This document shows, piece after piece, positions 5,759 to 36,735 of a DNA stretch of 48,634 bases. A model generated the notes under the pieces. That model was given only the letters and a program-made list of their open reading frames with translations, did not search any database and was not told the DNA's origin. The translations under genes and the position numbers were made by a program. The first letter of the stretch is position 1; the number at the start of each line of letters is the position of its first letter. This DNA comes from a virus: the IMG/VR virus record IMGVR_UViG_3300045988_068629, positions 1-48,634 of that record; one strand, written 5' to 3'.

Positions 5759-6323
5759 GCTGTTAGCTCCCTACATCAGAAAGTGGGAAGGGGGATTTGT
5801 GAATGACCCCGCGGATAGTGGAGGTGCAACCAACATGGGTGTCACGATGGGCACGTTTGAAGTCTATTGCCAAAAAAAGGGCTACCCGCGCCCAACGGTG
5901 GAGCGCCTGAAAAAGCTGACCACCGCGGAGTGGACGGATATCCTGAAGACCATGTATTGGGACAGATGGCAAGCCGATAGAATTAAGTCGCAGAAGGTTG
6001 CCAATATCCTTGTAGATTGGGTGTGGGGGTCAGGTGTCCATGGCATCAAGATTCCGCAACGCATCCTTGGTGTGGCTGTGGATGGCATTGTCGGTGAGAA
6101 GACGTTGCAGGCGCTCAATGCACAAGACCCCGACAAGCTCTTTCAGGCGATATACGAAGCCCGCCGAAAGTTCCTGCTTGACATCACGGAAGCGAGCATC
6201 AAGCGCTATGAAGCGAAGATTGGGCGAAAAGCCACCGAAGCAGAGCTATTGCGCCACACGAACAAGCGCTTTCTTCGTGGGTGGAACAACCGCCTTGAAG
6301 ATATAAAGGTCATATCACGATGA
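5745..6323 (+). CDS. Endolysin, GH108 N-acetylmuramidase domain plus PG_binding_3 domain
   Basis: [25 protein letters not shown] matches the GH108 EGGxxxxxxDxGGxTxxGI signature. The C-terminal [17 protein letters not shown] matches a peptidoglycan-binding motif. Confidence 0.85.
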
Positions 6324-6868
6324 AGCGCGCGGTCATTATGCTTGCGGTCGCCCTGGTGGCGTCATGCTCGCTCAAAAAGAAGAGCGTTGATACATCTGTT
6401 GTCAAGGTGGATTCAACGGCTGTGACCACCTCCAGCAGAGCCAAGGTTGAACGCTTGGTTGATACGACCACCACGACAACGGGGCGTATCGTCGTCACGG
6501 AGGTGGAGTTTGCAACAGATAGCAATGCCGGCACGATTGGAAGTGTTGTCTTTGGTGCGAGTGGCATTGAGGTGGCGGGCATCACGGGTCGCCCCGTTCG
6601 CTCAATCAAACAGCAGGTGATTGAGAGCGTCCATGAGCGCAAGGGAGAGAGCCAAGAGAGTGAGGAGGGCGAGGAGAGCAAGCAATCAGCATCTGTGCGG
6701 AGCGAAGTGTCGCGCGTGTCCAAGGTGCTTGCGCCAGCCCCCGACCCTTACAGATGGCGCTACATCTTCTACTTGGCGTTGATTGGCTGTGGCGTTGTAC
6801 TTTATGCTAAGCGTACGCCCTTCATAGGGTGGTTGCGTAGGATTCTTGCGGGTCTTATTAAGCGGTAG
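6320..6868 (+). CDS. Unimolecular-spanin-like protein with an N-terminal lipoprotein signal and a C-terminal TM anchor
   Basis: [16 protein letters not shown] carries a lipobox-like VASC. The C-terminal TM is [18 protein letters not shown]. The gene overlaps the endolysin stop and is the last gene of the lysis cassette. Confidence 0.5.
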
Positions 6869-6896
6869 CGCCAAGGCGCAACCATAATGAAACAAG

Positions 6897-6932
6897 AAAG
6901 CCCCACACCATAAGGTGCGGGGCTTTTCTTTT
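6897..6932. terminator. Bidirectional rho-independent terminator between convergent genes
   Basis: 13-bp stem aaagccccacacc / ggtgcggggcttt with one mismatch and loop ataa. It is flanked by an A-run on one side and a T-run on the other. Confidence 0.75.
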
Positions 6933-6944
6933 GTCTTGGCTGGA

Positions 6945-7430
6945 TTACAGCTTGATGTCCTCGGAGCTTACATTTAGCATTTGTGCGAGTGCCTCGCGGT
7001 TAAGCGTCTTGCCCTTTGCGTCTCCATACCCCTCGACGAATAGGACTATTGAGCCGTCGTTTACGTAGTAGTCGGCGGAGTACTCAATGAAAGTACCATC
7101 CTTGTAGTTTTCGCAGATATAGGCGGAGAGCTGACCGATTTCTGCATCCATACCGTATCTCTTTGAGCCGAGTTCAAGAAGCATAGCTTGGACAAGGTCA
7201 ATGAGATATTCGTGAGCATCTTCCCAGCTCTTTACGCCCTCTACGTAGTGACCGCTGATGTCTTCAAGGTACTCGCCGTAGGACTTGCCGTTGTTGATTT
7301 CAAGGCGAGCGCTTGCGATGTTGTAGTTGCCACCCTCGCCGTCACACCAATTGATGTCATACGCGATGTCATGGTCTGCTGGCGTTACGCCGTTTACTGC
7401 ATTGAAGTAGTAGGTCTTCTTCGTTTCCAT
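6945..7430 (-). CDS. Highly acidic hypothetical protein (moron-like accessory gene)
   Basis: 161 aa with about 29 D/E against about 12 K/R by hand count. It is a single minus-strand gene with its own promoter box and terminator, between the lysis and lysogeny modules. Confidence 0.55.
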   Translation of the reverse strand: METKKTYYFNAVNGVTPADHDIAYDINWCDGEGGNYNIASARLEINNGKSYGEYLEDISGHYVEGVKSWEDAHEYLIDLVQAMLLELGSKRYGMDAEIGQLSAYICENYKDGTFIEYSADYYVNDGSIVLFVEGYGDAKGKTLNREALAQMLNVSSEDIKL

Positions 7431-7505
7431 TGTCTTGTAGTATTTAGTTGTTACTGATAGTTTGTTTCTTTTGCTTCGGGGCTTTGTTGTTCCCCTTTCA
7501 CACTA

Positions 7506-7513
7506 CAAAGGTA
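7506..7513 (-). promoter_or_regulatory. Bacteroidota-type -7 box TAccTTTG (minus strand) for the acidic protein gene
   Basis: The plus strand reads caaaggta, whose reverse complement is tacctttg. It lies about 76 nt upstream of the ATG at 7430. Confidence 0.5.
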
Positions 7514-7520
7514 AGACATT

Positions 7521-7552
7521 ATTTTTACCCCACCAAATTTTAGGGTAAAAAT
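7521..7552. promoter_or_regulatory. Perfect 10-bp inverted repeat (ATTTTTACCC-N12-GGGTAAAAAT), candidate operator
   Basis: Read directly. It sits just upstream of the leftward -7 box in the divergent intergenic region. Confidence 0.45.
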
Positions 7553-7626
7553 TTTTGTTGTGGCGTTTCTTTATTGTTTGTTGGATGCCCTTTGATGTGG
7601 TGTTTTGCGGTGTCGGCTATTGTTTT

Positions 7627-7634
7627 TACCTTTG
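7627..7634 (+). promoter_or_regulatory. Bacteroidota-type -7 box TAccTTTG for the HTH gene at 7663
   Basis: tacctttg lies 29 nt upstream of the ATG, in an AT-rich context. Confidence 0.5.
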
Positions 7635-7662
7635 CGCTATAATAAGGTAAATATATATAGCT

Positions 7663-7992
7663 ATGAATGTGAAAGAGAGGCTTGACGCCATCAAGAGGCG
7701 CAAGGGCATTGAGAGTGATGCAGAGCTGGCGCGCTTGCTTGGAGTGTCAAAGCAGCGATTGTACGGGTGGAAGAGCCGCGACATAATCGACACCCCTACC
7801 ATTATGGCGGTCTTCCCTGAACTTCGCCCTGAGTGGGTAGAGCGCGGGGAGGGGGACATGTGTGACCAGCATGCAGAGCTATTGCGAAGGGTGGAGCAGT
7901 TGCAGGAGCTTGTTGAGGAGAAGGACGACATCATAAGCAAGCAAGCCGACCACATCAAGCGCCTCACAAAGGCACTGATGGGAGGATGGTAG
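7663..7992 (+). CDS. CI-repressor-type HTH DNA-binding protein with a coiled-coil C-terminus
   Basis: ESDAELARLLGVSKQRLYGWKSR...PEWVERGEGDM resembles the phage CI-repressor N-terminal HTH pattern (..W..R...WLL.GEG.M). Confidence 0.6.
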   Translation: MNVKERLDAIKRRKGIESDAELARLLGVSKQRLYGWKSRDIIDTPTIMAVFPELRPEWVERGEGDMCDQHAELLRRVEQLQELVEEKDDIISKQADHIKRLTKALMGGW

Positions 7993-8004
7993 TAGATGAA
8001 TGAA

Positions 8005-8037
8005 AAAGCCCCAAAATCGCATGAATTTTGGGGCTTT
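8005..8037. terminator. Rho-independent terminator hairpin
   Basis: Perfect 13-bp stem aaagccccaaaat / attttggggcttt with loop cgcatga, 13 nt after the stop at 7992. Confidence 0.75.
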
Positions 8038-8256
8038 CGTGTACTTATTCGTGTACTCGCTTTGTAAGTCCTTGAAAATCAAGGTTTATTGCGGAGAGAG
8101 AGGTAGTGCGACCTTGATGCCGTGTACTTTCAAAGCCTTTCATTTGCGTGCCTTGGCTAAATTCACAATACCACGGAGTGTCACGAAGCACCAAGATGGT
8201 ATGCTGTATTCGTGTACATTTCGTGTACGGCGTTGTAGGCGCTGAAAGTCGTGTAC
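8036..8256 (+). repeat. Six direct copies of (T)CGTGTAC, candidate integrase arm-type sites of attP
   Basis: Copies lie at 8038-8044, 8050-8056, 8121-8127, 8211-8217, 8222-8228 and 8250-8256, all in the same orientation. They are in the non-coding gap next to the integrase 3' end. Confidence 0.6.
8078..8118. other. Candidate attP core: 8-bp inverted repeat ATCAAGGT/ACCTTGAT flanking GCGGAGAGAGAGG
   Basis: Read directly. The reverse complement CCTCTCTCTCCGC resembles the 3' acceptor end of tRNA-Ser genes. Confidence 0.35.
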
Positions 8257-8264
8257 ATCGCACA

Positions 8265-9533
8265 TCATAGCTCGTCAAACTTTGTCATTGACCGCTCTTT
8301 TAGCTCGTCTACTATCTTGGCGTATGGCTTCATGGCGTTAAAGTTAGAGTGCCCCGTCCAACGCATGATGACCTCCACGGGGATGCCAAGCTGCAACGCC
8401 ATGACGACGAACGTGCGCCGTGCGACGTGTGTAGTAAGCAAGTGCCATTTGGGGTAGACCTCTTCATAGCGCGTGTTACCCTTAAAGTAGACTATACGGG
8501 TAGGCTCGTCCAGCCCTACCACCTGACCAAGCGTTTTAAGGTGCAAGTTCATATGCACATTGGAGATTATGGGCAATGCCCTATCACCGGGGAAGACGCA
8601 ACCGTTGTACTTATCAAGGATAGCTTGTGAGTGCCTATTTAGCTCTATCCTTAGCCCGTCAATGGTCTTCTTTGTAACAACGTGTACAACGCCCTTCTTG
8701 ATGTCGGAGCGGCGGAGCTTGGCTACATCGGAGTATCGTAGCCCCGTGAAGCACTGAAAGAGGAAGACATCGCGCACGCGTTCAAGAGCCTCTTGCATTG
8801 GCTGAAATTGAAAGTCCTGCAACTGCTTTATCTCCTCTTGTGAGAGGTAGATGATTTCCTTTGAATCAACGGAAATCCCCTTTAGTTTGGGCTTGAAGGT
8901 GTTGTGCAGGTCGCCATGGTAGTAGCCTTTTTGAGCTGACCACCGAAGCAGCCACCGGAGAAAAGAGAGGTGGCGCGATATGGTTGTATTGCGCTGGTCT
9001 TTCTTGTAGTAGTAGGCAATGAGGTCTTGCAGCTTCCCTTCTGTGAGGGTCTCAAAGGACAATCCAGGGTCAAAGGATTTCAGATGGTGGCGGAGCGTCC
9101 TGAACTTTTGATATGTCGACGGCGTCCATTGATTCTTCTCCCCGACCTGTGCCATGAACAAATCAATGACACCCCAAAGGTCTATTTTGCCGTCATCGTC
9201 CATGAGTGACGCGCGACCCACCATGTCATTGAAGAGGTCTTTTACCTCTTGTGGTGTCGGCACGCGCTTCTCCAGTAATTCATAGCGGGCAAAGACTTCG
9301 TTTATCTGTGCCTTGTACTCTTCTATGGTGCGGTTTATTTCAGCCGCCTCCCTTGTACCTGCAATAGCGCGCTCTGTCTTGGCATCCCATTGGTCTAAGT
9401 CTATTTTGCGACCTATGGGAAAGTCAAACGGGCGTTCCCCTCGTAGCGTCACGCGCATCCTTATTGCAAGGTCTGTCGTGTCGGTTGCTTTGCGCTTATG
9501 CAGGTTGAATTTGATGCTTCGCTTTATGAACAT
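8265..9533 (-). CDS. int: Tyrosine-type site-specific integrase
   Basis: The C-terminal LTTHVARRTFVVMALQLGIPVEVIMRWTGHSNFNAMKPYAKI carries the H-x-x-R, H and Y catalytic residues. An earlier GLRYSDV segment supplies the catalytic R. The start was chosen at MFIKRSIKFNL (9533), abutting the upstream gene. Confidence 0.9.
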   Translation of the reverse strand: MFIKRSIKFNLHKRKATDTTDLAIRMRVTLRGERPFDFPIGRKIDLDQWDAKTERAIAGTREAAEINRTIEEYKAQINEVFARYELLEKRVPTPQEVKDLFNDMVGRASLMDDDGKIDLWGVIDLFMAQVGEKNQWTPSTYQKFRTLRHHLKSFDPGLSFETLTEGKLQDLIAYYYKKDQRNTTISRHLSFLRWLLRWSAQKGYYHGDLHNTFKPKLKGISVDSKEIIYLSQEEIKQLQDFQFQPMQEALERVRDVFLFQCFTGLRYSDVAKLRRSDIKKGVVHVVTKKTIDGLRIELNRHSQAILDKYNGCVFPGDRALPIISNVHMNLHLKTLGQVVGLDEPTRIVYFKGNTRYEEVYPKWHLLTTHVARRTFVVMALQLGIPVEVIMRWTGHSNFNAMKPYAKIVDELKERSMTKFDEL

Positions 9534-17461: not shown

Positions 17462-18163
17462 ATGAAAGATACATACTACTTCCAGCACGACTACAACGCA
17501 CGCAATGACCCGAAGCTGCAAGAGGTGCTTTTGGAACATGGAGTTGCAGGTGTCGGTGTCTTTTGGTGTGTCATAGAGCAACTCTACGAGCAGGGCGGAA
17601 AGCTCCCACACAAGGCATGCAAAAGCATTGCATTTGCATTGCACGTGGACTGCAAGCTGGTTGAGAGCGTGGTCAAGGATTTTGACCTCTTCAAGCTGGA
17701 TGCCCGCCACTTTTGGTCAAAGTCTGTGATTGCCCGCCTTGATAGACGCAAAGAGATTTCCGACCGAAGGAAGACCGCCGCCGCATCAAGGTGGAAGCCA
17801 CGCCAGCAAGAGGTGCAAGTGCAAAGCAAAGATGATGCAATTGCATTGCAAGAGCTATCCAAAGGAAAGGAAAGGAAAGGAAAGGAAACAAAAGGAAATG
17901 ATATAGAAGAAGAGGAGGGTGCAAAGACCGCTAAGCGGTTTTGCCCACCCACCTTGGAAGAGGTGAAAGCGTATTGCAAAGAAAAGGAGTACACCATTGA
18001 TGCCGAGCGATTCATTGACTTCTATACATCCAAGGGGTGGTTTGTAGGAAAGAGCAAAATGAAGGATTGGCAAGCAGCCGTCAGGAATTGGCACAAGGGT
18101 AGCAAAACAGATGGAGGTGCGCGCACCACGAGCAACAACAACATAAATGACGAATGGCAATGA
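17462..18163 (+). CDS. Replication initiator-like protein (DUF4373 / Lin1244-type N-domain, DnaD-like C-terminal region)
   Basis: MKDTYYFQHDYNARNDPKLQEVLLEHGVAGVGVFWCVIEQLY fits DUF4373. The C-terminal EVKAYCKEKEYTIDAERFIDFYTSKGWFVGKSKMKDWQAAVRNW is present. The low-complexity KGKERKGKETKGN segment is encoded by AAAGG repeats. Confidence 0.65.
   Translation: MKDTYYFQHDYNARNDPKLQEVLLEHGVAGVGVFWCVIEQLYEQGGKLPHKACKSIAFALHVDCKLVESVVKDFDLFKLDARHFWSKSVIARLDRRKEISDRRKTAAASRWKPRQQEVQVQSKDDAIALQELSKGKERKGKETKGNDIEEEEGAKTAKRFCPPTLEEVKAYCKEKEYTIDAERFIDFYTSKGWFVGKSKMKDWQAAVRNWHKGSKTDGGARTTSNNNINDEWQ
17835..17889. repeat. ATGCAATTGCAT palindrome plus (AAAGG)5 tract inside the initiator gene; imperfect inverted copy of 35666-35728
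   Basis: The palindrome is at 17835-17846, and 17835-17850 equals the reverse complement of 35883-35898. The AAAGG tract is at 17861-17885. Confidence 0.7.
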
Positions 18164-28612: not shown

Positions 28613-30070
28613 ATGCCATTAGAGGAGTTATTTGCTGGTAAGACGACTAACGAGATTATCAGCGAGCTAAAAAGCAAGCGTACCACGGCGCAGCCTGACG
28701 CAGAGCAGGCACGCAAAGCCATTGACCCGAAGCTGCATGACATCAACAACCAATTCTTGCGCCCTGACAAGATGGTGCGAGTGGACAATCCAGGCGATGG
28801 TGCAGACAAGGTAATTGACGCAGGTGCAGATGGAGGTTATACACGCATTGAGAAGGTTGCACGCGTGGCTGTTGCGTTGCAGAAGCTAATCATCAACCGC
28901 GCCGTATCGTTCACCTTCGGTAATCCCGTTGCCTACAACGCCACGCCCGAAGGCGAGGGGCAGGAAGCTGTGCTTAAAGCGGTCACACGCATTCTCTACG
29001 ACAACAAGACAACTTCACTCAACCGAAAGGTTGCGCGCAGCGTCTACGGCTTCAAAGAGGTCGCGGAGCTTTGGTATGCCCAAGAGAAGCCCAAGGCGCA
29101 TCAGTCCTACGGCTTCCCTACGAAGTTCAAGCTACGATGTGCGCTGTTTTCACCGATGTTCGGGGACACGCTGTACCCATACTTTGACACCACGGGTGAC
29201 CTTATCGCCTTCTCGCGCGCTTACACCCACGTTGCGTCAGACAAGCAGCGCTTTGACTACTTTGAGACATACACCGAAGATGAGCATTGGTTGTGGGTCA
29301 ATGGGTCGGGTGGCTATGAGGTGGTAGAGGGCTACCCCAAGCGCGTTGCCATTGGCAAGCTACCCATTGTGTACGGGTATCAAGACCACTTCGAGACCCA
29401 GGATGTGGACAGCTTGATTGACCGCCTGGAGAAGCTGCTATCAAACTTCGCAGACACCAACGACTACCACGCCAGCCCTAAGATTTTTGTCACCGGTCAG
29501 ATTAACGGCTGGAGCAAAAAGGGCGAAGCTGGAGCGGTCATTGAGGGCGAGGAGGGTGCTACCATGAACTACGTATCTTGGCAGAACGCCCCTGAAAGCG
29601 TCAAGCTGGAGATTGAAACACTCTTGCGCCTGATTTACACCATCTCGCAGACCCCTGATGTCAGCTTTGAGAACGTCAAGGGCATTGGCGCAATCAGTGG
29701 CACGGCGTTGAAGTTGCTCTTTATGGATGCCCACCTAAAGGTGCAGGACAAGAAGGAGGTCTTTGATGAGTATCTGCAACGCCGTGTGAACGTCATCAAG
29801 GCTTTTGTGGGTCAATTCAACACGACCTTGGAGAACGATGCAGATGCCCTTGAAATAGAGCCTGAAATCACGCCATACACGCTGACCAATGAGATTGACG
29901 AAATCAATATGTGGCTCTCAGCTAACGGCAACAAGCCTCTTGTGTCGCAAAAGGCAAGTGTGATGGGTGCAAATCTGACGCAAGACCCCGAAAAGGACTT
30001 TGAGCAGATACAAGAGGAGGCGAATGCAGACAATTCGTTTGTCATCGGCGAGCCTGTAATCGACGCATAA
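28613..30070 (+). CDS. Portal protein
   Basis: 485 aa, immediately after TerL. The ATG at 28613 (MPLEELFAG) follows the conserved box. The track start at 28496 overlaps TerL. Confidence 0.7.
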   Translation: MPLEELFAGKTTNEIISELKSKRTTAQPDAEQARKAIDPKLHDINNQFLRPDKMVRVDNPGDGADKVIDAGADGGYTRIEKVARVAVALQKLIINRAVSFTFGNPVAYNATPEGEGQEAVLKAVTRILYDNKTTSLNRKVARSVYGFKEVAELWYAQEKPKAHQSYGFPTKFKLRCALFSPMFGDTLYPYFDTTGDLIAFSRAYTHVASDKQRFDYFETYTEDEHWLWVNGSGGYEVVEGYPKRVAIGKLPIVYGYQDHFETQDVDSLIDRLEKLLSNFADTNDYHASPKIFVTGQINGWSKKGEAGAVIEGEEGATMNYVSWQNAPESVKLEIETLLRLIYTISQTPDVSFENVKGIGAISGTALKLLFMDAHLKVQDKKEVFDEYLQRRVNVIKAFVGQFNTTLENDADALEIEPEITPYTLTNEIDEINMWLSANGNKPLVSQKASVMGANLTQDPEKDFEQIQEEANADNSFVIGEPVIDA

Positions 30071-30267
30071 TGGCAAAGAGGGTAGCAAGGTTGTACGAAG
30101 CACCGCAGTACAGGTGCAGAGATTGCCAACATTCGTATGATTGGCAAGAGAAGAATTGGCAAGGGGAGCTTTTCATGTGCCGTTGCAAGTATCATCATGA
30201 GGGGCGGTTTATCAAGTTCCTCAAAGACCCCCAATGTGAGCATTTCACGCTAAGGAACAATGGCTAA
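30070..30267 (+). CDS. Small Cys/His-rich (zinc-binding-like) protein
   Basis: Contains CRDC...CRCKYHH...CEH. Confidence 0.4.
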   Translation: MAKRVARLYEAPQYRCRDCQHSYDWQEKNWQGELFMCRCKYHHEGRFIKFLKDPQCEHFTLRNNG

Positions 30268-32857
30268 AAGACAGAAGACAAAGGCGTTTTCGTTCCAGGG
30301 ATTTGACGCAGCGCACTACAAGACGACAACGGCATACACACGAGCCGTGAACGCCCTGTTTGACAAGGCAACGAGTGACATTGCAGAGGTCGCCCACAAG
30401 GAGACCTACAACCCTGACAAGCCGTTTGACTTTGACGACTACCCGAAAGCCAAGGCGCAACTGCAAAAGGTCGTCAAGGGGCTTGCAAGTCAGATGCAGG
30501 CGGTCATTGAAACAGGGTCACGCCGGCAGTGGCTCTTCGCTTGCCACAAGAACGATGAGTTTATAGCTTCCATCATTGACACGACGAAGCTAACCAAGGG
30601 GCGCTTGCAGAAGATGCAAGACCGCAACTTGGACGCTTTGCAGTCCTTTCAGGCTCGCAAGGTGGGTGGCATGAGCCTTGCTGAGCGCGTGTGGAAGTAC
30701 ACAGAGCAATACAAGGCGCAGATTGAGCTTGGTCTTGATGTTGGGCTTGGAGAGGGTCGGAGCGCGCAACAGCTTTCGCGTGACCTACGGCAGAATCTTC
30801 AAGACCCCAACCGTCTGTTTCGCCGTGTGCGTGACAAGCGCGGGAATTTGCAGTTGTCTAAGGCTGCAAAGGCTTTCCACCCTGGGCAAGGTGTGTACCG
30901 AAGTAGCTACAAGAATGCTATGAGGCTGACGCGCTCGGAGATTAACATGGCGTATCGCGAAGCAGACCACCTACGATGGCAACAGCTTGACTTTGTCGTT
31001 GGCTTTGAGGTGCACCGCTCTAATCACGAGCCTAAGTGCAAGTGTGACCTTTGTGAGCGTCTTGTCGGCAAGTACCCAAAGTACTTCAATTTCAAAGGGT
31101 GGCATCCTCAATGTCTATGTTACGCCACGGCTATCCTTATGGATGAAGACGACTTTGACAAGCAAGAGTTGTCTGACCTAAAGAGCGCACTTAAAGGCAC
31201 GGAGTACCGCAAGTTGTCCGCCAAGAACGAGGTCACGGAGCTTCCCGATGGCTTCAAGGATTGGGTGGCAGAGAAAGAGGCGAAGCAGGCTAATTGGGCA
31301 TCAACGCCCTATTTCATCAAGGACAACTTCGTTGATGGTGATTTATCGAAAGGATTGGTATACGTTAAGGAAGAGAAGCCTCTAACACTACTTGAAAAGG
31401 CGGCAATAAGGCATAAGAATCGTACCACTGAACAGGTGGAAGCCATTCAAAAGCGTTGGGAGGAAAGAAAACAAAAGCACGCTCTTATCAGACAAGAAGC
31501 GCAAGGAGTTCTTGATACAGCTAAGGATTATAGTGAGGTTGATTTTTCTGCATTACAAACCGCTATTGATGCAGGGGATATTGTCAAGATGCAATCTATT
31601 GCCAAGGAGGTTGAAAAGGTTATTGGGGAAATGCAGAAGCAGGAAGAAGCCCTTTCTAATCTTATCCCCAATGTACACGAATGGCACAAAAGGTTTACGC
31701 TTGATGAACTCAAAGGTGTATATAGTGCCGTTGAGAAGAAACTTGCTTCTTGGGATGGATTGACATTGCAAGAACAATCAAAGAAGTTGAAGTTTGAAGC
31801 GGAAGAGTACTTTGGCACAGACAAGTATGGCGCACAAACAAAATACAAGACTTGGGGCGTTGCGCAAGATGCCTACAAGATGCATCTTGATAAAGTTCAA
31901 TACAAGATTGATAAGCAAGAAATTGAAGCGAGTGTTAATCATTCATTCTCTTTTGCTCAAAAGACAAAGAGTGTAAAGGTAAAGCAGCTTGTATCTGAAC
32001 TTCAATCCCTACTTGGAAACAATGCAACGATAGCAGAGCTTCAAAGCAAGGCTGATGCACTAAATAACGAGGTATCAAAGCTGGAAGCTGCTAAACTTGC
32101 CCGCGATTTGAAGAAGTTAAGCAAGCTGGGCAATGGGTTTAGTCCTGATGCCTATGTGCAAGAACGCAAGGATAGAGCGGTGTGGGATAAAGGAAGCGGA
32201 AAGGTTGCTGATAAGACCCTTATTGATGTTGCGGCGAAGAATTGGATTGATTCAACGGAAGATGAAAAGGATAGGGTTTATGAATATACACACCATTATT
32301 GCAATGTGAACGAACCTTTGCAAGGTCGTAAATACCTAAGCCATCAGACAAGGGCAGATTTCGAGCATCGAGTAAACAACATTACTTCTTACATCAGTAA
32401 GAATGTATTGCCTGAAGATATGTGGTTTATGCGAGGTGATGACGGTCTTGGGGTGATTGCTTCACGAATAAAGTTTGCTGGGGGAGAAATGCCAAATGAC
32501 TTGCAAGACTTGGTTGGTATGACTATGCAAGAAGGCGGTTTTATGTCCACAGGTAGCCGCAAGGGCAAGGGGTTCAGTTATAAGCCTGTTGTTATCCATG
32601 TGTATGCGCCTAAGGGTACGCAAGCCGCTTATCTTGAGCCTATCAGTGCATATGGTAAAGGTGCGGGCAGAAAATGGGATGGAAAGCAGAGGTTTAGTAC
32701 ATTTAGCTCTGAACACGAAACGTTGTTCCAACGAGGTACACTAATGCGAATAACAAAAGTGTACCAAGTCGGTGGAAAAACGTTTATCGATTGTGAAGTG
32801 GTAGGGCAAGAGGTTAAGCCATTGTCCTATGTTCCTGATGGCAATATAGGCTATTGA
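30260..32857 (+). CDS. Minor head protein (SPP1 gp7 / Mu F-like domain) with a helical linker and a C-terminal ADP-ribosyltransferase (R-S-E, exoenzyme-type) domain
   Basis: Mu F-like region: RSEINMAYREAD..HEPKCKCDLCERLVGKY..GWHPQCLCYA. ART region from nt 32282 to the end: YTHHYCNVNEPLQGR, WFMRGD, GFMSTGS, VYAPKGTQAAYLEPIS, SEHETLFQRG. Confidence 0.75.
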   Translation: MAKRQKTKAFSFQGFDAAHYKTTTAYTRAVNALFDKATSDIAEVAHKETYNPDKPFDFDDYPKAKAQLQKVVKGLASQMQAVIETGSRRQWLFACHKNDEFIASIIDTTKLTKGRLQKMQDRNLDALQSFQARKVGGMSLAERVWKYTEQYKAQIELGLDVGLGEGRSAQQLSRDLRQNLQDPNRLFRRVRDKRGNLQLSKAAKAFHPGQGVYRSSYKNAMRLTRSEINMAYREADHLRWQQLDFVVGFEVHRSNHEPKCKCDLCERLVGKYPKYFNFKGWHPQCLCYATAILMDEDDFDKQELSDLKSALKGTEYRKLSAKNEVTELPDGFKDWVAEKEAKQANWASTPYFIKDNFVDGDLSKGLVYVKEEKPLTLLEKAAIRHKNRTTEQVEAIQKRWEERKQKHALIRQEAQGVLDTAKDYSEVDFSALQTAIDAGDIVKMQSIAKEVEKVIGEMQKQEEALSNLIPNVHEWHKRFTLDELKGVYSAVEKKLASWDGLTLQEQSKKLKFEAEEYFGTDKYGAQTKYKTWGVAQDAYKMHLDKVQYKIDKQEIEASVNHSFSFAQKTKSVKVKQLVSELQSLLGNNATIAELQSKADALNNEVSKLEAAKLARDLKKLSKLGNGFSPDAYVQERKDRAVWDKGSGKVADKTLIDVAAKNWIDSTEDEKDRVYEYTHHYCNVNEPLQGRKYLSHQTRADFEHRVNNITSYISKNVLPEDMWFMRGDDGLGVIASRIKFAGGEMPNDLQDLVGMTMQEGGFMSTGSRKGKGFSYKPVVIHVYAPKGTQAAYLEPISAYGKGAGRKWDGKQRFSTFSSEHETLFQRGTLMRITKVYQVGGKTFIDCEVVGQEVKPLSYVPDGNIGY

Positions 32858-33186
32858 CCGGGGATTTTATCTTCTGGACAATGGTCATTAGCTATGAACA
32901 AGTATTCATCCATCAGCTTGTAGAAGTTGTTGATACTATCCTTTATTGAATAGGCAGTCTTTCCCCACGAAGTGAACATTACCATAAGCAAATCAAACGG
33001 AATGCCCGGATAGGGTTTTCCGTTTATTTGTTTGTAGTAATCACGTTCCCCCGTGAATTGACCTTGTGAAGACACATACACGCGCTCCATATCCCAAAAC
33101 CAATCCATAGTAGCATCGTTGAAAGGGCTTGCTTCTTGACCGCTGTAATAGCGACATTTCCTTATAAGGGCTTGCTTGTTATCCAT
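32851..33186 (-). CDS. Hypothetical protein translationally coupled to the ADP-ribosylglycohydrolase
   Basis: 111 aa. Its ATG overlaps the ARH stop (ATGGATAA), and its own stop overlaps the stop of the convergent ART-containing gene by 7 nt. Confidence 0.55.
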   Translation of the reverse strand: MDNKQALIRKCRYYSGQEASPFNDATMDWFWDMERVYVSSQGQFTGERDYYKQINGKPYPGIPFDLLMVMFTSWGKTAYSIKDSINNFYKLMDEYLFIANDHCPEDKIPGQ

Positions 33187-33958
33187 ACTTCTGTTTGAAT
33201 TTAGTTACTACATCTTGCATCTCTTTAGGGAGATAGCCCCACGCCTTGTCTTGGATATGCTGAGGTATTCCGTAATAGGCTTCAGCAATACTACCCGTAA
33301 TGGCAGCTATTGTGTCGCTATCGCCACCTATTGACACAGCAAGGCGGATAGCACTTTCAAAGTCTGTGCTTTCAAGAAAGCAAACTATTGCTTGTGGCAC
33401 GGTTACTTGGCAAGTCTCATTAAAGGTGTTTGTGCGTCTGATTTCATCGGAGGTTTGTTGGATATTGTAGCCATACATTTCGGCTACTTCTCGCACTAAT
33501 TGCTTGCCATTCTCTTGATTTTTGCGAGAACACAAAGCCATTTTAATACAGCTTGCCACGCATTCAGCCCCCTTGATCCCTTCGGGGTGATTGTGTGTGC
33601 ACTCTGCGCTTTCCCGTGCAAACTTCATTACGTTATGAGCTTCTGTAATGTATCCACAAGGCGACACTCGCATTGCTGACCCATTACCAAAACTATTGTA
33701 TGGTTTAGGGTTAGGAGAATGAACCCATCGACCGAAAGAACCGCCATAAGCTCCCTTGGGATTTGGGTATTTTCTGCACCATTCAAGTAATGATTGTTCA
33801 AAACTCACTCCTCGCAAGATTGCATCTGCAACGGCAACCGTGCATATTGTGTCATCTGTGAAAGAGCATTCATTTGTGAACATCTCAAAATCTAATCTAT
33901 GTGTATTGTTGAACTCAAAACGAGAACCAACAATATCTCCTATTATTGCACCTAACAT
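33179..33958 (-). CDS. ADP-ribosylglycohydrolase family protein
   Basis: Carries MLGAIIGDIVGSRFEF, SFGNGSAMRVSP, THNHPEG and IGGDSDTIAAITGSIAEAYYG, all hallmark ARH/DraG-family motifs. Confidence 0.88.
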   Translation of the reverse strand: MLGAIIGDIVGSRFEFNNTHRLDFEMFTNECSFTDDTICTVAVADAILRGVSFEQSLLEWCRKYPNPKGAYGGSFGRWVHSPNPKPYNSFGNGSAMRVSPCGYITEAHNVMKFARESAECTHNHPEGIKGAECVASCIKMALCSRKNQENGKQLVREVAEMYGYNIQQTSDEIRRTNTFNETCQVTVPQAIVCFLESTDFESAIRLAVSIGGDSDTIAAITGSIAEAYYGIPQHIQDKAWGYLPKEMQDVVTKFKQKYG

Positions 33959-34004
33959 ATCTATTTCTTTTCTTTTCCCGATTTTGATAGATCTATGCGC
34001 TCCA

Positions 34005-34784
34005 TTACGCAACCCCTCCTTTCTGTTCAAACACCTGGTGCAAGAACCATCTACCGCGCTCTGTCCACACGGTTATGCTGTTCGTGCCTTGCGTGCCGTC
34101 TTGCTTGGTGTATGGGTGCGTGCGGGTCTTGGTGTAGTTTTGCCCGCAATACTTCGCTGCAAGCATCCATTGCCCGCTCTGGCGAATCATGATGCCCCAT
34201 GACTTCAAGAGCGCGTGCAGCTGTTCGGCGGTGCGCAAGTCCAACTCCTTTGCCATCTGTGTAGACGTGTAGGTGTTGGAGGCGTTAAGCACGTTGTCGG
34301 TGTATTCTACCTTGGGCGCTTGCTCTTTCAGCTGCTCGCTTTGGCTTGTGATGACCGCTTGCGCCGCTTGCAGTTGCCGTTGGCTCTTCTCAATGGTGGA
34401 TTGCGCCACCATCAAGGCGCGCGCCATGATAAGCTCGGGCGTGTCTTCGGGCTGTGTGGCGATGTAACCGCCTGTTTGCCTTATGGCTGGTAACACCTCT
34501 TCGCACACCCAATCCTGGAATTGTTCGGCTTCTACTTTGCGAGATTGGAAGATGCACCGGTACAGATTTGCTTCTGTAATGAAGTTAAGTTGCTGGATGC
34601 CTCCATTTGTAGGGGTGTCACTAATAGTTACCCCCTTTTGGCTTAATTGTGTTTTTACCTGTCTTGGATTTTTCAATCCAAGAGCCTTGCACACATCGAC
34701 AAGGCAAAACAGGGGGTCGCCGTTTTCGGTCTTGGATGTTCGCACCTGACCAAATTTGGCACTCTCAAATACTCTCACTTCCAT
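34005..34784 (-). CDS. BRO-N / KilAC-domain antirepressor-like protein
   Basis: N-terminus: VFESAKFGQVRTSKTENGDPLFCLVDVCKALGL (Bro-N). C-terminus: YTSTQMAKELDLRTAEQLHALLKSWGIMIRQSGQWMLAAKY (KilAC-like). Confidence 0.75.
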   Translation of the reverse strand: MEVRVFESAKFGQVRTSKTENGDPLFCLVDVCKALGLKNPRQVKTQLSQKGVTISDTPTNGGIQQLNFITEANLYRCIFQSRKVEAEQFQDWVCEEVLPAIRQTGGYIATQPEDTPELIMARALMVAQSTIEKSQRQLQAAQAVITSQSEQLKEQAPKVEYTDNVLNASNTYTSTQMAKELDLRTAEQLHALLKSWGIMIRQSGQWMLAAKYCGQNYTKTRTHPYTKQDGTQGTNSITVWTERGRWFLHQVFEQKGGVA

Positions 34785-35013
34785 TTGTAGAACGCTTTGA
34801 AAGATGGGCAATAAGAAACGGTATTGCCTTTCCCGTCGTTCTACACCTCAAAGGCAGTGGGTGCATTAACACGCCACACGGGGGTACAATACCGTTGTAT
34901 GTTTTGTTGGGGCAAAAAAATACCGCCAACGTGATGTCAAGCGGTCAATCCGCCTTTGAGGAAGTAGAACACTGCAAATGTAAGCATTCTTTTTGAATGT
35001 GCAAGCGCTTGTG

Positions 35014-35487
35014 TTACTTTGCGAGGTCTTCGCGTCTGAAAAAGATGCCCACGGCTAAGCCTGGTGCGTCTTCCGGCTTTTTGTCGTAGACAAGCACGGT
35101 CTTATCAGATTTCCAAATGTACTTATCTCCGTCTTGTTCTGCTCCTCCATATAGCCCCACAAGCTCGCTGAGGCACGCATCAATAAACGCTGGCTCAACA
35201 TAGAACAGGATGTTTCGTGCAGTGTAATCAACAAACTTCACTCGCACCCGTTTTAGATTCGCTGTATTCAAAACGCAGTAGTCCTCGCTTAGCAGGCATA
35301 GCGCGTTTCCCTTTTCCACTTTGCCGATTAGGTCTAACACGGTAAGGTGTTTGGTTATTGAATCGTTGAGCATGACGGGGTATATCCCACAGCGCTTGTC
35401 AAGATACCCAAGCTCCCCTTTCACCTGTGCATTGGCGAATAGCGTGGTGCAGGCTATTGCTATTACAGCAAGTATAAATCGCTTCAT
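35014..35487 (-). CDS. Secreted or lipoprotein-like hypothetical protein (lysogenic-conversion candidate)
   Basis: The signal peptide is MKRFILAVIAIACTTLFANAQ. The start at 35487 lies 30 nt downstream of a minus-strand TAccTTTG box. Confidence 0.55.
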   Translation of the reverse strand: MKRFILAVIAIACTTLFANAQVKGELGYLDKRCGIYPVMLNDSITKHLTVLDLIGKVEKGNALCLLSEDYCVLNTANLKRVRVKFVDYTARNILFYVEPAFIDACLSELVGLYGGAEQDGDKYIWKSDKTVLVYDKKPEDAPGLAVGIFFRREDLAK

Positions 35488-35517
35488 TGCTTCTCTGTGT
35501 TGGTTGTTTACTACCTG

Positions 35518-35525
35518 CAAAGGTA
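35518..35525 (-). promoter_or_regulatory. Bacteroidota-type -7 box TAccTTTG (minus strand)
   Basis: The plus strand reads caaaggta, upstream of the ATG at 35487. Confidence 0.5.
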
Positions 35526-35711
35526 GGTAAATCAATCAAAGTGCGTGCAACGCACATTCCCCCAAAACAAAGAAATTCATCGCCCTATGTGTGTCAAGAA
35601 ATCGGAGATTTCGCCCCAACACACATATACGAACGTTAGTGAGTATATGGGTGTATATATATATACTTTCCTTTCCTTTTCTTTTCTTTGGATACCAAAT
35701 GCACTGCAAAA

Positions 35712-35922
35712 GCTATGCAATTGCATAACATTTGCATTAAGTATCTGATAATCAGCATACATTTTTGGCGACTTCAATACGCATCACGCCTATTTGTGGG
35801 CTATCCAGGTGCGTGTTTTTGTGCTGTTTTTGGCAACTTTTGCCACCGTGAAAACATGTGTGCATTGCACCTGCTGTAACCTTGCAATGCAATTGCATTA
35901 CAAATGCTATGCAATTGCATAA
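35712..35922. repeat. Three copies of the 12-bp perfect palindrome ATGCAATTGCAT, two within the 17-mer GCTATGCAATTGCATAA
   Basis: The 17-mer occurs at 35712-35728 and 35906-35922. TGCAATGCAATTGCAT occurs at 35883-35898. A related GTGCATTGCAC is at 35859-35869. Confidence 0.85.
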
Positions 35923-35990
35923 GGCTACATCGTGGTCGCCTTGCAGGGTAATTGTGTGTAACTTAACTACAAAAGGGCTGGGCTATTGGC

Positions 35991-36019
35991 GTGTATCACT
36001 ATGAAACAAGCTATCTTTG
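35991..36019 (+). promoter_or_regulatory. Conserved box GTGTATCACTATGAAA followed by a TAtcTTTG -7 element (head gene promoter candidate)
   Basis: The box is at 35991-36006 and TATCTTTG at 36012-36019. The ATG is at 36049. Confidence 0.55.
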
Positions 36020-36048
36020 TAGTGATTTGTAATACAAACCAATTCAAG

Positions 36049-36735
36049 ATGAACTTTGAACAGATTCTTGCACTACTTGGCGCTAAGTTTCAAGGCGTGC
36101 GAAAGGATGGATTGGCGCAATTGGCGCGCGTTATGGCGCTACAATGCTCCAACGAAGAGGAAGCGAAAGCCCTTGTTGAGAAAGTGACCGAAGCGCAGGT
36201 AACTGATTTCGTCAAGGAGTATCGCAAGGTGGTAGATGCCGAGGTGTCCAATGCTGGAAAGAGCATTGAATCATCTCTACGCAAGAAGCTGGAAGCAGAA
36301 GCAGGTAAGCCCAAGGGCAATGAAGAGCAACCAGCTCCAACAGACCTCGCAGAAGCTATCAAGATGGCGGTGGCAAGTGCCGTACAGCCGTTGCAAGATG
36401 AGCTTACGAAGTACAAGCAGGGCGAAATTGGAAAGTCAAGGCTTCAAGCGCTGAATGACGCACTTTCAAAGTGCAAGGATGAAACGTTCAAGGCTCAAAC
36501 GTTGAAGGACTTTGGGCGTATGAGTTTCAACGACGACGCAGCGTTTAACGAATACTTGTCTGAAAAGGTAGCAGACATCAAGACCACCAACCAAAGTGTG
36601 TCAGATGCAGCTATGTCAGGAGGCGCTGGCGCGCCGCAGTTTGGTCAGAAGACCGAAGGTGGCGTTTCAAAGGCTGTCGCCGACTACGTTGCAAGTAAGT
36701 CCGATGCTGGCGCACTCACGGGCAAGGAACTTTAA
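36049..36735 (+). CDS. Scaffolding protein (putative)
   Basis: 228 aa, highly helical and charged, upstream of the capsid genes. The start was chosen at MNFEQIL, downstream of the promoter box. Confidence 0.5.
   Translation: MNFEQILALLGAKFQGVRKDGLAQLARVMALQCSNEEEAKALVEKVTEAQVTDFVKEYRKVVDAEVSNAGKSIESSLRKKLEAEAGKPKGNEEQPAPTDLAEAIKMAVASAVQPLQDELTKYKQGEIGKSRLQALNDALSKCKDETFKAQTLKDFGRMSFNDDAAFNEYLSEKVADIKTTNQSVSDAAMSGGAGAPQFGQKTEGGVSKAVADYVASKSDAGALTGKEL

Follow-up and report, generated by a model that had tools for sequence, protein, structure and literature searches.

Does the ADP-ribosyltransferase (ART) domain predicted at the end of a phage minor head protein form an effector-antidote module with the ADP-ribosylglycohydrolase (ARH) encoded convergently beside it, and is such a module of a known type? 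The question is raised by a locus of the IMG/VR virus record IMGVR_UViG_3300045988_068629, analysed over a stretch of 48,634 nt (hereafter, the window). The locus is very probably a MuF polymorphic-toxin cassette of the Bxa family, carried by a temperate siphovirus whose host is one of the oral or gut Bacteroidales. The window contains genes of a temperate phage (an integrase, a repressor-like gene, terminase, portal, major head protein, and tape measure), and its closest relatives are those of Porphyromonas, Alloprevotella, and Prevotella. The three open reading frames of 865, 111, and 259 aa are as given in the preliminary description, and every peptide quoted there is found in the translations. 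The features of the locus are the following:

30260-32857, plus strand: MuF-ART fusion protein, 865 aa (ORF translation)
30260-31339, plus strand: MuF-like minor head (portal-associated) domain, aa 1-360 (PHROG, AF2/Foldseek, gene position)
31340-32224, plus strand: middle domain, aa ~361-655, a helical, Lys/Glu-rich linker that travels with the toxin domain
32225-32857, plus strand: predicted C-terminal C3/VIP2-type mono-ART, i.e., Bxa-type toxin domain (Pfam, PHROG, residues)
32851-32857: 7-nt overlap of the convergent gene ends (read directly from the sequence)
32851-33186, minus strand: putative Bsi-like protein, 111 aa (ORF translation)
33179-33958, minus strand: predicted ARH, 259 aa counted from the ATG (a TTG start would lengthen it to 34030)
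31340-34000: exchangeable toxin-immunity cassette comprising the middle domain, ART, Bsi-like, and ARH segments (homology breakpoints, G+C)
34005-34811, minus strand: Bro-N/KilAC anti-repressor-like gene (Pfam ANT 5e-26, Bro-N 7e-21)

The 865-aa gene lies directly 3' of the portal gene, and on sequence grounds its product can be considered to end in a C3/VIP2-type ART domain, the domain calls being far beyond chance. Pfam ADPrib_exo_Tox matches aa 660-837 (E 1.5e-22), the PHROG family phrog_16625, 'Bxa ADP-ribosyl transferase', matches the 865-aa protein (E 2.4e-138), and the PDB sequence matches of the domain are Lmo0066, the C3 exoenzymes, and Vip2. The R-S-E signature noticed initially is corroborated by the Pfam match and by the catalytic residues, R725, S763-T764, S766, and E818-x-E820 being invariant across 31 distinct homologues of 55-99% identity. 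The positions reported for the R725 codon (32432-32434) and for E818-H-E820 (32711-32719) stand, but the first residue of GGFMSTGS is aa 759, at nt 32534 and not at 32546, which is S763 of its STGS part.

The classification of the N-terminal part as a gp7/Mu F-type head protein holds for the PHROG families and the predicted fold, but Pfam Phage_Mu_F and NCBIfam gave no match to this part of the protein. Among the PHROG profiles it matches phrog_7625 (head morphogenesis, 5.8e-87) and phrog_115 (minor head protein, 1.5e-27), and a Foldseek search of its AF2 model (pLDDT 79) against BFVD returned 74 matches with E<=1e-3, mostly 'minor capsid / MuF-like / head morphogenesis', while the hhalign alignment with SPP1 gp7 is weak (E 0.023, 25 columns). 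The middle domain, whose counterpart in Bxa is termed 'MD', had no family match in the profile search.

A module of this composition has already been characterised. Alexei et al. (J Biol Chem 2024, PMC11699363) showed Bxa, a fusion of MuF and ART, to be lethal to bacteria and to be countered by two proteins, the hydrolase BAH, which is encoded next to it and has E15 as its catalytic residue, and the small binding protein Bsi; all three come from PhiBxa, a prophage of Bacteroides stercoris (Brown et al. 2021, cited in PMC11699363). The experiments comprised E. coli toxicity, the E820A mutant, and Arg-ADPr for Bxa, E15-dependent rescue from Bxa toxicity for BAH, which is inactivated by the E15A mutation, and, for Bsi, co-purification as well as the mutants K89E and E92K (PMC11699363). 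The earlier statement that no adjacent writer-plus-eraser pair was known in a Bacteroidota phage is thus wrong; the effector-antidote reading itself is supported, experiments having shown it for the homologous Bxa/BAH pair and the catalytic residues being intact here. The triplet is also present in two deposited isolate phages, Bacteroides phage Versailles, whose fusion protein has 16/16 of the published Bxa interface and catalytic residues, and Porphyromonas phage phage005.

Judged by homology, the module in the window is a diverged version of Bxa/Bsi/BAH. The fusion shares with Bxa the MuF N-domain, the middle domain, the C-terminal ART, the catalytic Glu at position 820, and the PHROG family, and the locus shares with PhiBxa the location after the portal gene and the convergent small immunity gene followed by an ARH with E15. 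It differs in the length of the fusion (865 aa vs 869 aa in Bxa), in the upstream neighbour (the Bro-N/KilAC anti-repressor vs the small helix-turn-helix RS09440 in PhiBxa), in the convergent genes, which overlap in the window and are separated by a terminator-like hairpin in the Bxa system, and in the likely host (Porphyromonas or Prevotella-type vs B. stercoris). Against the Versailles orthologues, identity is ~31% overall and 33% in the toxin domain (E 2e-37), and the Bsi-like protein reaches ~26% and the ARH 54%; since the toxin domain and the Bsi-like protein are this diverged, target range and immunity strength could differ from those of the characterised system.

The 259-aa protein is confirmed as an ADP-ribosylglycohydrolase by Pfam ADP_ribosyl_GH (E 6.2e-38) and also matches phrog_6572 (3e-81); E15, D35, D36, D213, D215, and T216 are invariant across 38 homologues. 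It is most plausibly a BAH-like ADP-ribosyl(arginine) hydrolase acting as the enzymatic immunity protein. Its arginine specificity is inherited solely via the identity to the BAH orthologue of Versailles, because the nearest solved structures by sequence are ARH3 and DraG, not ARH1, and in NCBIfam it scores far under the cut-offs of the DraG and Tri1 models (DraG, 56 bits vs an equivalog cut-off of 337). The 111-aa protein, previously listed as of unknown function, appears to be a remote Bsi homologue and second, non-enzymatic immunity protein: hhalign of its family with the Versailles Bsi orthologue gave a probability of 96.7% (E 3.7e-10, 89 columns), and the essential K89 of Bsi aligns with K76, invariant in the family. 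E92 of Bsi, essential in B. stercoris, is not conserved and aligns with Tyr79. The AF2 model (pLDDT 93.7) has five helices, matching the description of Bsi, and had no fold match in the PDB; the protein is a probable active-site blocker of the ART.

Several other systems are comparable in part. [quoted passage not shown] 2018), whereas in the window module binding and hydrolysis would be split over two. DraT/DraG, whose DraG model and structures match the window ARH, are likewise an Arg-ADP-ribose writer and eraser, but regulate nitrogenase reductase and do not constitute a toxin-immunity pair. The best solved-structure sequence match of the ART domain is Listeria Lmo0066 (PDB 8za7, E 2e-10), the partner chain of which matches the window ARH (E 3e-10); Lmo0066/Lmo0067, an ART and ARH-family pair solved together, is chromosomal, from Firmicutes, and without a MuF fusion. 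T4 Alt, too, is a head-associated ART, and T4 is not known to encode an ARH next to alt. According to a review (PMC9503650), packaging and injection of Alt are experimentally established, whereas for the window protein they are hypothesised; the fusion of an Alt/VIP2-family ART to MuF was explicitly described by Iyer et al. 2022 (PMC9503650). Apk2/Aph1/Tis1 (Ahmad et al. 2023, PMC10083569) follows the same logic, a toxin fused to MuF and encoded among the head genes being accompanied by one enzymatic 'eraser' and one active-site-blocking immunity protein, but Apk2 is a (p)ppApp synthetase, making alarmones in place of ADP-ribosylation, and the toxin and immunity folds are unrelated.

The linkage of the three genes is strict. 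A Bsi-like gene lies downstream of the ART in 45/45 related loci spanning 6 ART clusters, and an ARH in 41/45; where MuF carries another C-terminus (14 loci), the corresponding counts are 0/14 and 1/14, so that the proposed co-occurrence of ART and ARH in related phages was found. Because four ART loci have no ARH, the enzyme is dispensable in some lineages. In close relatives, DNA identity is 90-92% as far as 31339 and is lost beyond, and against those bearing other C-terminal toxins the homology breakpoints at 31339 and 34001 are sharp. Reciprocally, a block at ~31376-33976 is common to four phages with unrelated backbones (L014, L016, L020, and L022; 81-86% nt identity). G+C is 0.43-0.44 across 31001-34000, compared with 0.50-0.53 in the adjoining head and tail genes. 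The middle domain, the ART, and both antidotes (~2.7 kb) are exchanged among phage backbones as a single cassette, and the MuF-like N-terminal domain is phage backbone, outside it. The Bro-N/KilAC gene, co-oriented with the ARH and 46 nt upstream of it, is not in the cassette either. It may be a promoter source for the immunity genes, which is only suggestive: the gap upstream of it contains, at 34982-34975, a -7 box of the Bacteroidetes type (TAcaTTTG), and the motif is not enriched across the window (28 found vs 24.9 expected).

It could be argued that the ARH works independently of the ART, as a housekeeping or anti-defence eraser directed, e.g., against a host ART-based defence, and is adjacent to the ART only incidentally. 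The 74.5%-identical ARH of P. gingivalis phage005 beside a sequence-unrelated MuF C-terminal domain, an orphan ARH persisting in one locus (L067) after toxin loss, and the four loci with toxin and no ARH favour this, but the ARH follows the ART in 41 of the 45 loci and lies inside the co-transferred cassette, 13 of the 14 loci with another MuF C-terminus have none, and the rescue by BAH depends on E15 (PMC11699363), which makes such independence most improbable. Almost as improbable is that the convergent overlap serves as a regulatory device, through antisense or transcriptional interference between the late and the immunity operon, a suggestion also made in the preliminary description. Its basis stands in the window: the stops (TGA at 32855-32857 on the plus strand, TAG at 32853-32851 on the minus strand) overlap by 7 nt as described, no canonical terminator was found between the convergent genes (5 terminator-like sites within 30000-36200 vs 6.6 expected), and the junction hairpin is modest (z -2.5). 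The arrangement, however, varies: the 7-nt overlap is kept only in the window's clade, the spacing elsewhere being -4, -32, or +36 to +44 nt, and the gaps of the two gapped relatives folded, L034 and Versailles, hold strong hairpins with A-tract, stem, and U-tract (z -3.1 and -3.5), so that antisense control is unlikely as a conserved component of the mechanism. On the minus strand, the end of the ARH gene shares 8 nt (33179-33186) with the beginning of the 111-aa gene.

Other rivals concern what the toxin is for. A few MuF-ART copies in the capsid could be injected into the new host along with the DNA, as T4 Alt is, and alter host proteins in favour of the phage or so as to steer its choice between lysis and lysogeny, with the ARH and the 111-aa protein limiting or timing the modification; this overlaps with the preferred explanation and differs in biological purpose only. 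The MuF-like fold, the gene position beside the portal, the 1-2 copies of gp7 per SPP1 capsid, and the injection hypothesised by Jamet et al. 2017 and Iyer et al. 2022 (PMC9503650) are in its favour, as are the antidotes, which could be expressed independently because they are encoded on the strand opposite the late operon. Yet the papers examined on Bxa-type proteins report neither virion proteomics nor injection data and give the 'capsid targeting domain' as a hypothesis, and Bxa acts on many proteins and is lethal to E. coli (PMC11699363), whereas a takeover factor would be expected to be narrowly tuned; we regard this purpose as possible, though rather unlikely. It is doubtful, too, that the ART is a fitness factor in the animal host, freed by lysing or induced lysogens to act on mammalian epithelium while the antidotes serve only to shield the producing cell until then. 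In B. stercoris, Bxa has the published role of modifying epithelial proteins and triggering inosine release, and the module is found in human-associated Bacteroidales phages; the toxin domain, however, is only ~33% identical to that of Bxa, the likely hosts are oral Porphyromonas or Prevotella-type bacteria and not B. stercoris, and the sequence reveals no secretion signal or release route.

As a Bxa-family polymorphic-toxin cassette, the locus would work as follows. The late head-gene operon would yield the 865-aa protein with its MuF-like, helical middle, and ART domains, the first of which is expected to associate with portal and procapsid; given the MuF fold and the gene position, the fusion may be packaged in the capsid and injected. 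By analogy with the characterised homologues, the ART, of the R-S-E, E-x-E type, would use NAD+ to ADP-ribosylate arginines on many proteins, with lethal effect in the producing cell, the Bsi-like protein would bind it and block the active site, and the BAH-like hydrolase would strip ADP-ribose off modified arginines. Delivery or release to bacteria or host epithelium is hypothesised, here as in the literature. Toxin domain and antidotes are inherited and swapped between phages as one ~2.7-kb cassette, and such mobility between backbones is what is expected of a polymorphic toxin.

The 865-aa protein encoded in the window and its two convergent neighbours are very probably best explained as a MuF toxin of the Bxa family accompanied by two adjacent antidotes. 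[quoted passage not shown] 2012 and Jamet et al. 2017 defined; Alt/VIP2 ARTs fused to MuF were also described by Iyer et al. 2022 (PMC9503650). The C-terminal ART domain of Bxa kills E. coli, the E820A mutant being inactive, and arginine on many proteins is ADP-ribosylated by the toxin (PMC11699363). Two adjacent genes, BAH and Bsi, neutralise it: BAH is an ADP-ribosylglycohydrolase (ARH) that removes the modification and is dead as the E15A mutant, and Bsi, small and helical, co-purifies with Bxa, was modelled in its active site and loses protection in the K89E and E92K mutants (PMC11699363). Homology to this experimentally dissected system supports the effector-antidote reading put forward in the preliminary description of this DNA; the accompanying statement that no ART/ARH pair was described in a Bacteroidota phage is refuted by Bxa/BAH, published in 2024 (PMC11699363). 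The genes of the window are arranged as follows:

Genes of the toxin-antidote locus in the window
30260-32857, plus strand, MuF-ART fusion, 865 aa
32851-33186, minus strand, Bsi-like immunity gene, 111 aa
33179-33958, minus strand, ARH, 259 aa counted from the ATG

The ORF calls and the junction sequence agree with the three ORFs and the 7-nt convergent overlap reported previously. By direct reading, the plus strand of the junction is ...GGC TAT TGA, with the MuF-ART stop at 32855-32857, and the 111-aa gene, on the minus strand, stops with CTA (= TAG) at 32851-32853, giving an overlap of 7 nt between the converging genes. A further overlap, of 8 nt, joins the ARH stop to the start of the 111-aa gene.

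Residue fingerprints of B. stercoris Bxa/Bsi had no match among 238 proteins or 67 loci, and the contig scan behind the related loci yielded Porphyromonas, Prevotella and Alloprevotella relatives only. Bacteroides phage Versailles (ON453897, host B. caecimuris) was used as a stand-in for the B. stercoris Bxa locus. Its 869-aa protein carries 16/16 of the Bxa residues from the published interface tables, and its gene is followed downstream by a convergent gene for 107 aa, one annotated as ADP-ribosylglycohydrolase and a further small one. The 107-aa protein, read by hand, matches 9/11 published Bsi interface residues, with the numbering shifted by 3 throughout.

Comparison of the window proteins with their Versailles orthologues (identity, E value)
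Full-length MuF-ART, 31%, 5e-133
Toxin domain, 33%, 2e-37
111-aa protein, 26%, 1e-6 (BLASTP)
ARH, 54%, 6e-95

With identities of 26-54% across the triplet, the window locus is, judged by sequence, a diverged member of the Bxa family and distinct from the characterised locus.

The ART domain is recognised by Pfam as ADPrib_exo_Tox (C3/VIP2-like; E 1.5e-22, aa 660-837), and the 865-aa protein matches phrog_16625, 'Bxa ADP-ribosyl transferase', with an E value of 2.4e-138. Like Bxa, it thus has a C-terminal ADPrib_exo_Tox domain with the R, S-T-S and E-x-E catalytic residues. Among 31 distinct ART domains (55-99% identical) R725, S763, S766, E818 and E820 are unchanged and T764 is altered once, in keeping with the R-S-E-type ART earlier assigned to this C-terminus. 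All the motifs listed at that time are present, R725 at 32432-32434 and E818-H-E820 at 32711-32719, but GGFMSTGS begins at nt 32534, the previously given position 32546 being that of its STGS part. The nearest solved sequences are those of Listeria Lmo0066, C3 exoenzymes and Vip2. Because of the E-x-E motif and the ARH identity to the BAH orthologue, arginine is the likely target.

The ARH assignment of the 259-aa protein also holds: ADP_ribosyl_GH is matched in Pfam with an E value of 6.2e-38, and E15, D35, D36, D213, D215 and T216 never vary across 38 ARH sequences (47-98% identical). The protein thus shares with BAH the ADP_ribosyl_GH fold, the catalytic Glu15, the metal-binding Asp clusters and a gene beside the toxin. 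Its nearest solved sequences are ARH3, DraG and Lmo0067, the last of which was solved together with Lmo0066 as its partner (PDB 8za7); a literature search on this entry found no paper. As the nearest solved relatives include both ARH3 and DraG, linkage specificity is not readable from the ARH sequence.

The 111-aa protein, previously listed as unknown, is by sequence a probable second antidote of the Bsi type. Besides the BLASTP match, a 42-homologue profile aligns with the Versailles Bsi orthologue over 89 columns (hhalign probability 96.7%, E 3.7e-10), which establishes sequence homology to Bsi. Bsi K89 aligns to K76, invariant in 42 family members, and Bsi E92 to the non-acidic Tyr79. The AF2 model (pLDDT 93.7) is a five-helix globule, in agreement with the published description of Bsi; a fold search against the PDB gave no match at E<=0.001. 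As expected of a Bsi, this small all-helical globular protein is encoded convergently and directly downstream of the toxin, a position kept in all the loci compared below.

The linkage of the three genes was assessed in loci retrieved with the 865-aa protein that have a Bxa-type ART and at least 1.3 kb of downstream DNA (n = 45, six ART clusters at 90% identity). A Bsi-like gene is convergent and immediately downstream of the ART in 45/45 of them and an ARH is present in 41/45, and 14 loci with a related MuF N-domain (up to 97% identical) but another C-terminus have the Bsi-like gene in 0/14 and the ARH in 1/14, all four counts being drawn from phylogenetically non-independent loci. Within that limit, the co-occurrence of ART and ARH in related phages that had been named as a check is observed. 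Relatives at first taken as 'ART-less' were rejected as negative controls, as they contain a different internal ART domain, missed by tblastn; what is linked to the antidotes is therefore the Bxa-type C-terminal ART, and not ART domains generally.

The limits of the exchanged DNA are well marked. Close relatives are 90-92% identical to the window across the terminase, the portal and the MuF N-domain, the similarity ending at 31339 and homology resuming at 34001, and window ~31376-33976 recurs at 81-86% identity in phages whose portal and MuF N-domain differ. The exchanged unit therefore comprises the middle domain, the ART, the Bsi-like gene and the ARH; over this unit G+C dips to 0.43-0.44. 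The alternative cassettes have an internal ADPrib_exo_Tox domain of a different kind, in some cases with an added C-terminal glutamine deamidase domain; other small convergent ORFs (77 or 74 aa) follow, and there is no ARH. Cassette swapping at the MuF C-terminus, as read from these comparisons, marks this as a polymorphic toxin locus: a constant N-terminal trafficking domain is joined to variable C-terminal toxins exchanged together with their cognate immunity genes.

Several natural variants of the locus are also worth mentioning. In six loci (L023, L024, L027, L029, L059 and L003) the same MuF N-domain is followed by a different ADPrib_exo_Tox domain (aa ~400-581) and then by a convergent 77-aa ORF, with neither an ARH nor a Bsi-like gene; L024 (MuF ORF 6001-8877) and L027 have an additional C-terminal Gln_amidase (glutamine deamidase) domain. 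Four others, L004, L040, L044 and L063, keep the Bxa-type ART and the Bsi-like gene and lack the ARH, whose place in the Prevotella-type ARH-less loci is taken by other small genes; these four loci suggest that a binding immunity protein alone can suffice. In L067 (5971-7941) the MuF gene breaks off after ~180 matching residues, directly beside an intact ARH gene (68% identical), without an ART or a Bsi-like gene, and next come two small ORFs, by eye a putative HicA/HicB pair; this locus is probably what a deletion left behind, with the eraser orphaned. The isolate P. gingivalis phage005b_ATCC49417 (phage005; L070, 5001-7846) encodes a 591-aa 'minor capsid protein' with an N-domain 69% identical to that of the window and a ~190-aa C-terminus that has no Pfam match and shows, by eye, R...S.T...E-Q-E spacing. 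The convergent 108-aa protein encoded downstream has only the N-terminal CR[YF]Y.G motif region in common with the 111-aa protein, and the ARH encoded after it is 74.5% identical to the window ARH.

The convergent junction varies among the clades. The 7-nt overlap without a terminator, as originally described, is true of the window clade; in other clades the genes overlap by 4 nt or, in phage005, by 32 nt, or stand 36-44 nt apart. Two gapped relatives were folded, L034 (gap at 8749-8785) and phage Versailles (L069; 6425-6464), and in both the gap contains a strong hairpin set between an A-tract and a U-tract (z -3.1 and -3.5), which looks like a bidirectional terminator; the window junction has a modest hairpin only (z -2.5). 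The window clade, in which the genes overlap, has lost the gap hairpin. Antisense control, or transcriptional interference, between the convergent genes had been offered as an option for the overlap. It was rejected as a conserved feature, since the junction varies by clade and strong hairpins stand in the L034 and Versailles gaps; it is therefore not a conserved part of the toxin-antidote system. Scans for sigma-70 promoters and terminators remained at chance level. A Bro-N/KilAC anti-repressor gene lies upstream of the immunity genes in the same orientation, with a Bacteroidetes-type -7 box in the gap before it; as the -7 motif is not enriched in the window, the box can be taken only tentatively as the promoter of the immunity genes.

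The assignment of the N-terminal part to the SPP1 gp7/Mu F type, made in the preliminary description, stands in part. Neither Pfam Phage_Mu_F nor NCBIfam matches it, even at E up to 10, and the hhalign match to SPP1 gp7 is marginal (E 0.023 over 25 columns). On the other side, the 865-aa protein has strong PHROG matches to head-morphogenesis and minor-head families, the AF2 model of the N-domain (pLDDT 79) matches 74 viral proteins in BFVD at E<=1e-3 (Foldseek), the majority annotated as minor capsid, MuF-like or head morphogenesis, the gene comes after the portal gene, and in isolate phages the closest homologues (those of Porphyromonas phage005 and Riemerella phages) bear minor capsid or head morphogenesis annotations. 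The predicted fold and synteny favour a MuF-like N-domain. From the MuF fusion we infer that the 865-aa protein may be capsid-borne; packaging and injection of MuF-fused toxins is stated as a hypothesis in the literature (Iyer et al. 2022, PMC9503650; Jamet et al. 2017). Demonstrated capsid packaging and injection with the DNA define an injected head ART of the T4 Alt type; for the 865-aa protein, the likely MuF fusion is indirect evidence of such a role.

The genome around the cassette is that of a complete temperate siphovirus of ~48.6 kb, encoding an integrase, a repressor-like gene, a DNA methyltransferase, a terminase, a portal, a major head protein, a tape measure and tail genes. The exact window proteins are on record under a 'Caudoviricetes sp.' metagenome assembly, in which the 865-aa protein is labelled 'VIP2'; megablast of the region against annotated phages found no near-identical DNA. 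A 65-aa Cys/His-rich ORF (30070-30267, plus strand) sits between the portal and MuF genes and overlaps each of them; it matches phrog_34745 (unknown function) with an E value of 4e-20 and is kept in most close relatives. On the other side of the cassette, a 157-aa ORF (35014-35487, minus strand), preceded by a TAccTTTG box 31 nt upstream of its ATG, begins with a hydrophobic signal-like segment, MKRFILAVIAIACTTLFANAQ, and has no family match. It is 97% conserved in L021, other signal-bearing ORFs being present instead in L023, L024 and L059, and probably represents a moron for a secreted protein or lipoprotein within the same variable island. The 450-nt gap separating this minus-strand island from the scaffold and major-head genes contains three copies of the perfect 12-bp palindrome ATGCAATTGCAT (35715-35726, 35887-35898 and 35909-35920), found once more at 17835-17846 (4 matches vs 0.21 expected); these may be operators bound by a factor that controls transcription of the late head genes.

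It is conceivable, if rather improbable, that the Bxa-type ART serves as a virion-delivered weapon or marker, the prophage immunity genes on the opposite strand deciding which cells survive infection by a related phage. The Bsi-like protein would then be the toxin-specific key, since it is kept in all 45 Bxa-type loci compared and its sequence differs where the toxin domain differs, as in phage005; the ARH would act as a general-purpose eraser open to exchange, being so similar beside the unrelated toxin domain of phage005 and lost in four lineages. If true, the phage would carry a system of kin discrimination or superinfection.

As for the Bxa-family toxin with its two antidotes, the conceptual addition is small, because a MuF head protein with this triad of ART, ARH and binding immunity was already reported, with experimental tests, in 2024. 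The window supplies a diverged family member from an oral-type Bacteroidales phage, and the cassette limits (~31340-34000) show the middle domain travelling with the toxin and both antidotes. The natural variants, namely ARH-less lineages, an ARH left without a toxin and the same ARH paired with another toxin, could guide work on which antidote is sufficient.
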